From Escherichia coli (GTDB lineage Bacteria > Pseudomonadota > Gammaproteobacteria > Enterobacterales > Enterobacteriaceae): a DNA stretch of 64,000 bases. Both the position numbers and the translations under genes were made by a program. The notes beneath the pieces were generated by a model that did no database searches, had not been told where the DNA came from, and worked only from the letters and a program-made list of their open reading frames with translations. The stretch lies in the NCBI RefSeq assembly GCF_003334335.1, contig NZ_QOWQ01000027.1. One strand, 5' to 3'. This document shows positions 60,410 to 60,505 of this stretch, piece by piece. The number at the start of each line of letters is the position of its first letter. Position 1 is the stretch's first letter.

Positions 60410-60505
60410 CTCTTAGTATACACTTGGTATACTAATTGGTATATTTAGCTCAATACACACTAGGTACATTGTTCTCTTTACGATTTATCGCTATACCGAT
60501 GAATT

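Follow-up and report, generated by a model that had tools for sequence, protein, structure and literature searches.

The short tandem repeats that lie just beyond the tRNA gene serT in the 64,000-nt stretch of Escherichia coli DNA analyzed here (the window) are probably arm-type integrase (Int) binding sites, belonging to the int-distal junction (attR in the lambda convention) of a lambdoid prophage that is integrated in serT. Read outward from the int stop codon, the attP of this element consists of one copy of TTGGTATA, an IHF consensus site, a core made up of the serT anticodon stem–loop and the rest of the 3′ half of the tRNA, a second IHF consensus site together with the phage's own terminator, three copies of TTRGTATA, and then the cargo. 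The features that characterize att sites of the lambda family were found here together: a lambda-type Int encoded within the element, a motif that is present in both arms and absent from attB, a contiguous attP in a free phage, IHF consensus sequences between the arm sites and the core, and a linkage of the repeats to the int/att module. As a lambda-type heterobivalent recombinase, Int would hold the TTGGTATA arm sites with its N-terminal domain and use its C-terminal domains to bind and cleave the serT core, and bends introduced by IHF would bring the arms back to the core, giving the intasome that carries out integration; in excision, these sites would work with the adjacent excisionase. From the comparisons set out below, we infer that it is Int, rather than another protein, that binds the motif. 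The serT arm array has the standard layout of a lambda-type intasome, and literature searches on the serT/yccA att arm sites and on the motif returned only incidental matches and no published description of these particular sites.

The array consists of three same-strand copies of TTRGTATA, spaced by 11 and 12 bp, and of one inverted copy that overlaps the middle direct copy (Table 1). Part of this structure had been recognized in an initial annotation of the window, which described an 8-bp inverted repeat (TAGTATAC at 60414–60421 and GTATACTA at 60427–60434) and a direct repeat of TTGGTATA. Both are present, the former by reading of the sequence as well as with a repeat finder, and the inverted repeat can be extended by one base on each side, which makes it perfect over 9 bp (TTAGTATAC at 60413–60421 and GTATACTAA at 60427–60435, with a spacer of 5 nt). 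The first of the three direct copies, which reads TTAGTATA, had been missed; when its surroundings are compared by the repeat finder, CTTAGTATAC matches CTTGGTATAC at 9 of 10 positions with a spacing of 11. The repeats are real and go beyond chance. TTRGTATA has five matches on the two strands of the 64-kb window, four of them within these 31 bp, where 1.9 would be expected window-wide, and a comparable triple arose in 37 of 2000 resampled arms. As had also been noted, the array lies just 3′ of a terminator-like hairpin (60375–60400, followed by a T run); it sits 45–76 bp past the end of the tRNA and 63–93 bp upstream of the ATG of the YkgJ-like gene (60506). The claim that did not hold up was that of a further GGTACA copy slightly downstream (60463–60468): sister prophages read GATAGA there, and since it is not conserved among them it looks like a chance match.

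Table 1. Features at the serT junction and in the adjoining prophage DNA, with positions in the window
Feature	Position	Strand	Basis and remarks
serT, tRNA-Ser(UGA)	60280–60367	+	ARAGORN; Rfam tRNA
Identity block (att core region)	60308–60367	+	Exact 60-bp repeat beside yccA, at the int-proximal end (L004:29304–29363)
Anticodon loop CTTGAAA	60312–60318	+	Putative crossover (overlap) region
IHF consensus match AATCAAGGGGTTA	60371–60383	+	Perfect to core consensus WATCAANNNNTTR; between core and array; overlaps terminator stem
Intrinsic terminator for reconstituted serT	60375–60409	+	Terminator scan; phage-supplied, diverged homologue of the native K-12 terminator
Arm-type site copy 1 (probable)	60413–60420	+	TTAGTATA here; TTGGTATA in the majority lineage
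Arm-type site copy 2 (probable)	60424–60431	+	TTGGTATA; inside the 13-mer ACTTGGTATACTA (60422–60434), identical to the int-proximal arm site
Inverted copy	60428–60435	-	TTAGTATA on the minus strand; with copy 1, the inverted repeat of the initial annotation
Arm-type site copy 3 (probable)	60436–60443	+	TTGGTATA; outermost element of the att module; sequence shared between lineages stops at ~60446
Cargo and tail end of prophage	60447–64000	-	ORFs and annotation of the identical NZ_CM142927.1 region; prophage continues past the window
YkgJ-like gene, 116 aa	60506–60856	+	YkgJ-family cysteine-cluster protein; prophage cargo
Hypothetical ORF, 181 aa	61214–61759	-	No family match
YadA/Eib-like trimeric autotransporter, 487 aa	61774–63237	-	NCBIfam YadA

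The genetic setting of the array becomes clear when the window is compared with a longer sequence that contains the whole element. In the window, hyaB and hyaA (minus strand) are followed by serT, the repeats, the YkgJ-family ORF, the hypothetical ORF, the YadA/Eib-like autotransporter and genes for tail-fibre assembly. The sequence NZ_CM142927.1 is identical to the window across 60200–61300, the 1.1 kb that were compared, and it served as the source of the int-side arm and of the integrase, since the window stops within the prophage. In NZ_CM142927.1 the genes that follow serT in the window are the tail end of a lambdoid prophage of ~50 kb, at whose far end lie genes for an exonuclease, a DUF4224 protein and a tyrosine integrase, and then yccA. 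In K-12, serT and yccA are adjacent. The prophage is inserted between these two genes, at the integration site that is called 'yccA' in papers and that is also occupied by Sp4/CP-933M of O157:H7 and by Stx2e, Stx2k and Stx2a phages (PMC9431244).

The prophage ends locate the junction within the tRNA gene itself. A duplicate of the 3′ part of serT begins 141 bp past the int stop codon and runs from CGGTCTTGAAAACCGG to the CCA end, which corresponds to 60308–60367 of the window; after it come the native K-12 terminator and yccA. Since this block is duplicated at both ends of the prophage, the crossover must fall inside serT. The boundary between host and phage thus lies inside the gene, and all DNA after 60367, including what had been taken for the serT terminator, is phage; serT in this lysogen is a hybrid, with a 5′ part of host DNA and a 3′ part re-supplied by the phage attP. 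Where in the block strand exchange occurs is suggested by several breakpoints. The second base of the anticodon stem is where the identity block begins, and the tRNA fragments of the related phages ST64B, ZF40 and Fostie, as far as they are readable, appear to end near this stem too. In 13 O103/O111:H11 genomes and the IMG/VR contig L036, what adjoins the int-side arm is a truncated DUF1737 gene from a different lambdoid prophage, with the fusion point right after CGGTCT, 2 nt into the anticodon loop (L036:2665–2792; L101:2563–2667). For these reasons strand exchange would be placed in the anticodon loop, and the inverted stem arms CGGT/ACCG that surround the loop are candidate core-type Int sites. 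The DUF1737 fusion may itself be a case of secondary-site integration or of an Int-mediated rearrangement between prophages.

If Int reads the motif in both arms, the motif should be found on either side of this core, and it is. The 13-mer ACTTGGTATACTA occurs in the window at 60422–60434 and again in the int-side arm, 28 bp past the int stop codon (L004:29189–29201), whereas a shared 13-mer arose in only 4 of 2000 resampled arm pairs. The K-12 attB, that is the serT–yccA region, has no copy of the motif, and three of the four exact copies of TTGGTATA in the 50-kb prophage lie inside the att arms. Two other candidate elements of the int-side arm were discarded: TTGGTGTTA, considered as a second arm site, is not kept in the IMG/VR contig L060, and a TAACACC/GGTGTTA inverted repeat is not kept in the phage Evi.

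We then reconstructed attP from the int-side arm and the window sequence, with the joint placed at the anticodon loop, and used it as a query against phage genomes. In the free phage Evi (LR597642.1) both arms are contiguous, with query positions 1–343 matched at 90%, and the similarity stops at the equivalent of 60446, three bases past repeat 3. The IMG/VR contigs L040 and L060 likewise carry an intact attP. The arm from the window side (60368–60446) is also widespread: at a threshold of at least 80% coverage it is present in 749 of 5,426 complete E. coli genomes, the matches covering query positions 1–79, whereas only ~40 of the 5,426 have, at this site, the repeat and also the beginning of the YkgJ-like gene. 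Eight representatives were aligned, and among them four unrelated downstream contexts (the YkgJ-like gene; an EspV fragment, as in Evi and O157 Sp4; and two others) are alike up to TTGGTATATTT (~60446) and diverge immediately thereafter. Within the YkgJ-type lineage, 60411–60449 is invariant while 60455–60485 carries 7–8 substitutions and the upstream T run varies in length. Because the sequence shared across unrelated cargo ends after repeat 3, the array marks the outer limit of the int/att module and has no fixed association with the YkgJ-like gene. A decayed relic of the same attP also occurs in the effector/cargo region of ompW prophages, between espO and the tail genes (L006:2995–3215 in PPompW phages; L016:~1500–1565 in the O55:H7 ompW prophage); despite an internal deletion, two copies of the repeat can still be recognized in it, as can the arm motif, the terminator and a serT 3′ fragment that carries mutations.

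The proteins encoded at the far end of the prophage are of the kinds expected for such an attP. The prophage Int aligns with residues 1–339 of lambda Int (PDB 1Z1B and 5J0N; E ~1e-19; phmmer), and the alignment spans the N-terminal arm-binding domain (MGRxR..LPP..NGY..GLGR). Since Pfam called only the catalytic domain in this protein and no arm-binding domain in residues 1–64, it is the phmmer alignment to lambda Int that supports homology in that part. Beside int, on its upstream side, the gene for the 80-aa DUF4224 protein matches the excisionase family PHROG 1266. In addition to the perfect IHF consensus match between the core and the array, the int-side arm has a second perfect match to WATCAANNNNTTR, which lies on the minus strand between the core and the arm site (L004 ~29220–29232), against a background of 5 such matches per 128,000 window positions. 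Both are kept in Evi though their N positions differ, and IHF would be expected to bind at both. The native K-12 terminator does not contain the consensus and reads GATAA where the window has ATCAA.

Relatives of this integrase have comparable arrangements built from different sequences. Using tblastn, we found Int proteins with 42–55% identity in the phages 689R5, ST64B, ZF40 and Fostie, each of which has its own tandem motif next to a tRNA fragment: three copies of ATTCCAAG in 689R5, a partial record in which one side only is seen; three copies of TTTTCTCA with spacings of 13 and 10 in ST64B, and one copy in the other arm; two copies of ATATTAGGAA in ZF40, and one inverted copy in the other arm; and two copies of TATTATGAA in Fostie, with an apparent shorter inverted copy (TTCATAA) in the other arm, as judged by eye. 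These phages belong to the same integrase clade, and in all of them, including ST64B at the tRNA-Ser gene serU, the tRNA fragment covers the 3′ end of the gene up to roughly the anticodon stem (near which it appears to stop in ST64B, ZF40 and Fostie, as far as the fragments are readable), with the tandem copies beyond the tRNA 3′ end as in the serT prophage. Unlike in the serT prophage, the tRNA fragment of the relatives has the opposite orientation relative to int, which places their tandem array int-proximal. Divergence of Int among the relatives is greatest in its 64 N-terminal residues, with 31–42% identity as against 43–63% in the other domains.

A smaller change of the motif is seen in one lineage of the att site. 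In L079 and L084 the int-side arm reads CCTGGTATAT, a T-to-C change, and in L079, the only one of the two that was read that far (L079:2540–2790), the tail-side arm does so too; the same change in both arms would fit one protein reading both. The integrases of L079 and L084 both carry E29K and G36K in the N-domain, in a comparison of few lineages in which the excisionase differs as well, and because the excisionase varies in parallel, the co-variation with the arm motif cannot separate Int from Xis. L079 has one copy instead of three in its tail-side arm, so that either three copies may not be essential or the L079 element has decayed; its terminator has a K-12-like start. Int relatives at 76–77% identity (L095 and L096) have no recognizable serT-type attP downstream.

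The same observations bear on whether the excisionase, and not Int, might occupy the array. Three head-to-tail copies at 11–12 bp within one arm are typical of arrays bound by Xis or other recombination directionality factors (RDFs), so the repeats could be bound by the 80-aa DUF4224/PHROG 1266 protein as a phased filament, with the Int arm sites lying elsewhere; we consider this unlikely. Lambda Xis does form a comparable phased filament on X1–X1.5–X2 (lambda layout in PMC4880445), and in the serT prophage the excisionase gene adjoins int and its sequence, too, varies between att lineages. However, the identical 13-mer is found in the other arm as well, as are the motifs of ST64B, ZF40 and Fostie, whereas RDF arrays are normally confined to one arm and the bridging of both arms to the core is a property of Int. 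Furthermore, neither arm was found to contain another repeated motif that could act as the Int arm sites. Two features nevertheless argue against the arm-site reading. The site is partly palindromic and the inverted repeat has been kept between lineages by a paired change, a pattern that one would sooner expect of a dimeric ligand or a hairpin than of sites for monomeric N-domains, and the tandem triple is in the int-distal arm, the opposite of lambda.

The paired change is seen when the window is compared with the majority form of the array (O157 Sp4 and Evi), ctcTTGGTATAaacTTGGTATACCAATTGGTATAtttt, which has three perfect direct copies and a perfect palindrome, TTGGTATACCAA. The window's lineage differs from it by three substitutions (60413–60435 compared with L005:2812–2834 and L011): G to A in copy 1, C to T in CCAA, and A to C. 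The first two pair with each other in the inverted repeat, which grows from 8 to 9 bp through the third. Folding yields one and the same weak hairpin for either form (−5.5 and −4.4 kcal/mol as DNA, z ~−3.3), and in the window's lineage only, the same substitutions create a promoter-like match, TATACA-17-TATATT with TG upstream. Substitutions that keep the symmetry, here a single event and the only somewhat unusual trait of the site, could reflect selection on a symmetric ligand or hairpin, tolerance of R at motif position 3, or template-switch mutation, the 'quasi-palindrome' process in which one repeat arm is corrected against the other. It is quite unlikely, in our view, that the element has a dual use, being recognized in addition by a second ligand that is dimeric or hairpin-specific, or acting as an outward promoter that Int occupancy switches off; were this so, expression of the cargo (here the YkgJ-like gene) would be coupled to the state of integration or excision.

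Symmetry of this kind could in principle mean that the inverted repeat functions by forming a hairpin in DNA or RNA, such as a cruciform, an extra terminator or a processing signal, or that it is a functionless quasi-palindrome left by template switching, and such explanations seem to us highly improbable. They would account for the presence of the same hairpin in both lineages and for three substitutions that are pairwise compensatory or stem-extending, but the stem is short and A/T-rich, and because the motif centre GTATAC/TATA is self-complementary, copies placed side by side make an inverted repeat almost automatic. Nor would they explain why there is a third direct copy, why a copy lies in the other arm and why the module ends where it does, and Rfam gave no match at the repeats. 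A known RNA family was rejected on the same search, in which the only match was the tRNA and all others were far below gathering scores.

That the element is instead the promoter or operator of the YkgJ-like cargo gene, with a dimeric regulator on the inverted repeat and −35- and −10-like hexamers inside the repeats, is very unlikely, even though several features invite such an interpretation. TATACA and TATATT, at 60417–60445, are separated by 17 nt and preceded by TG, the inverted repeat is perfect across 9 bp, and the cargo gene needs a promoter of its own because serT is terminated just upstream. However, only the window's lineage has the promoter match, which the majority form (O157 Sp4) lacks, the block is common to prophages with unrelated downstream genes and stops where the cargo begins, and similarity to the chromosomal ykgJ locus begins at ~60470, downstream of the repeats. 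The adjacent 181-aa ORF has no match to a regulator family. The initial annotation's proposal of an operator bound by a dimeric regulator is therefore unsupported as regards the YkgJ-like gene: the block travels with the integrase/att module in front of at least four unrelated downstream sequences, and an operator specific to this gene was rejected on the ground that the block is common to unrelated cargo contexts.

The YkgJ-like gene has ~81% DNA identity to chromosomal ykgJ, the similarity starting ~36 bp upstream of its ATG; it has no PHROG or NCBIfam match and is frameshifted in strain 55989. Downstream, ~60826–60932 matches plasmid sequences beside IS256-family transposase genes at 97–99%, and a truncated ORF of 14 codons (MDEKQLQALVLDVN and a stop, 60906–60950) within 60826–60950 appears to be the remains of a gene at a joint where cargo has recombined. 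The 487-aa YadA-like autotransporter, which we take to resemble the prophage-borne Eib immunoglobulin-binding proteins, and the 181-aa ORF are positioned between a tail-fibre assembly gene and the att site.

The sequence between the tRNA and the array explains why similarity to K-12 continues beyond the junction. The terminator of the reconstituted serT gene is phage-borne and has diverged from its native counterpart (K-12 gataaggggttagctaaatgctaacccc, window tcaaggggttaccaaatggtagcccc), which has been displaced to beside yccA, ~50 kb off. Megablast similarity to K-12-like genomes extends to ~60410 at 95.8%, with every mismatch past 60372, and it reaches this far because the phage has its own diverged copy of the terminator. 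According to the initial annotation, the repeats would have been native serT flanking sequence had K-12 carried them between serT and yccA; K-12 has no such sequence there, which rules out a native flank. Its other proposal, an attachment or recombination site at the island junction, was right as to the kind of site, an att site, but the repeats are not the core and lie in a phage-derived arm: identity at both ends and presence in the empty site hold for 60308–60367 and not for 60411–60446. The repeats do sit at the point where BLAST similarity to K-12 stops (~60410), but that they are the recombination core, or crossover site, of the island can be dismissed, since the sequence duplicated at the prophage ends is inside serT, neither the K-12 attB nor the sequence after the duplicate at the yccA-side junction contains the repeats, and 60368–60410 is a diverged phage terminator copy and not host DNA.

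With the repeats read as Int arm sites, a close known counterpart is lambda itself. The arm-type Int sites of lambda attP, reportedly described by Ross and Landy in 1982, have the consensus C/AAGTCACTAT. Lambda attP carries the arm-type sites P1, P2 and P′1–P′3 and the IHF sites H1, H2 and H′ (PMC4880445). The serT prophage is like lambda in having an Int that is homologous over its full length, a motif that is distinct from the core and present in both arms, three phased tandem copies in one arm, IHF consensus sequences placed between core and arm sites, and an excisionase gene beside int. It is unlike lambda in that its putative arm motif is TTGGTATA and partly palindromic, in that the core is inside a tRNA gene, so that attP carries 60 bp of tRNA and its own terminator, and in that the triple is on the int-distal arm, with one clear site seen in the other arm.

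Two other prophages of E. coli are instructive. KplE1 (CPS-53) at argW also resides in the 3′ end of a tRNA gene, with arm-type repeats by the tRNA fragment. In its attL, the IntS arm-type sites and the TorI sites overlap the intS promoter, and both binding and regulation have been shown (PMC2951348), making it a precedent for arm sites that overlap promoter hexamers; unlike in KplE1, where the promoter drives int, the putative promoter here would face the cargo, and would do so in this lineage only. O157 Sp4, which we examined directly, has the same att arm with three perfect TTGGTATA copies, in contrast to the window's lineage, where the three substitutions create the perfect 9-bp inverted repeat. 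The cargo differs as well, with an EspV fragment and TccP2 in the Sp4 group as against YkgJ-like and Eib-like genes in the window.

The docking of integrase at att sites is an ordinary part of the entry of phages into the chromosome and of their exit from it, and a repeat that had drawn attention as a possible regulatory element is, on the reading preferred here, part of this recombination machinery. The annotation of the locus is corrected accordingly: the boundary between island and host is inside the tRNA gene and not after the terminator. The att module is carried by ~14% of complete E. coli genomes, including those with O157:H7 Sp4, and because it is so common, a defined attP of ~250 bp (single site, IHF, serT core, IHF, triple) would help both in calling prophage boundaries and in the design of serT-targeted integration vectors.
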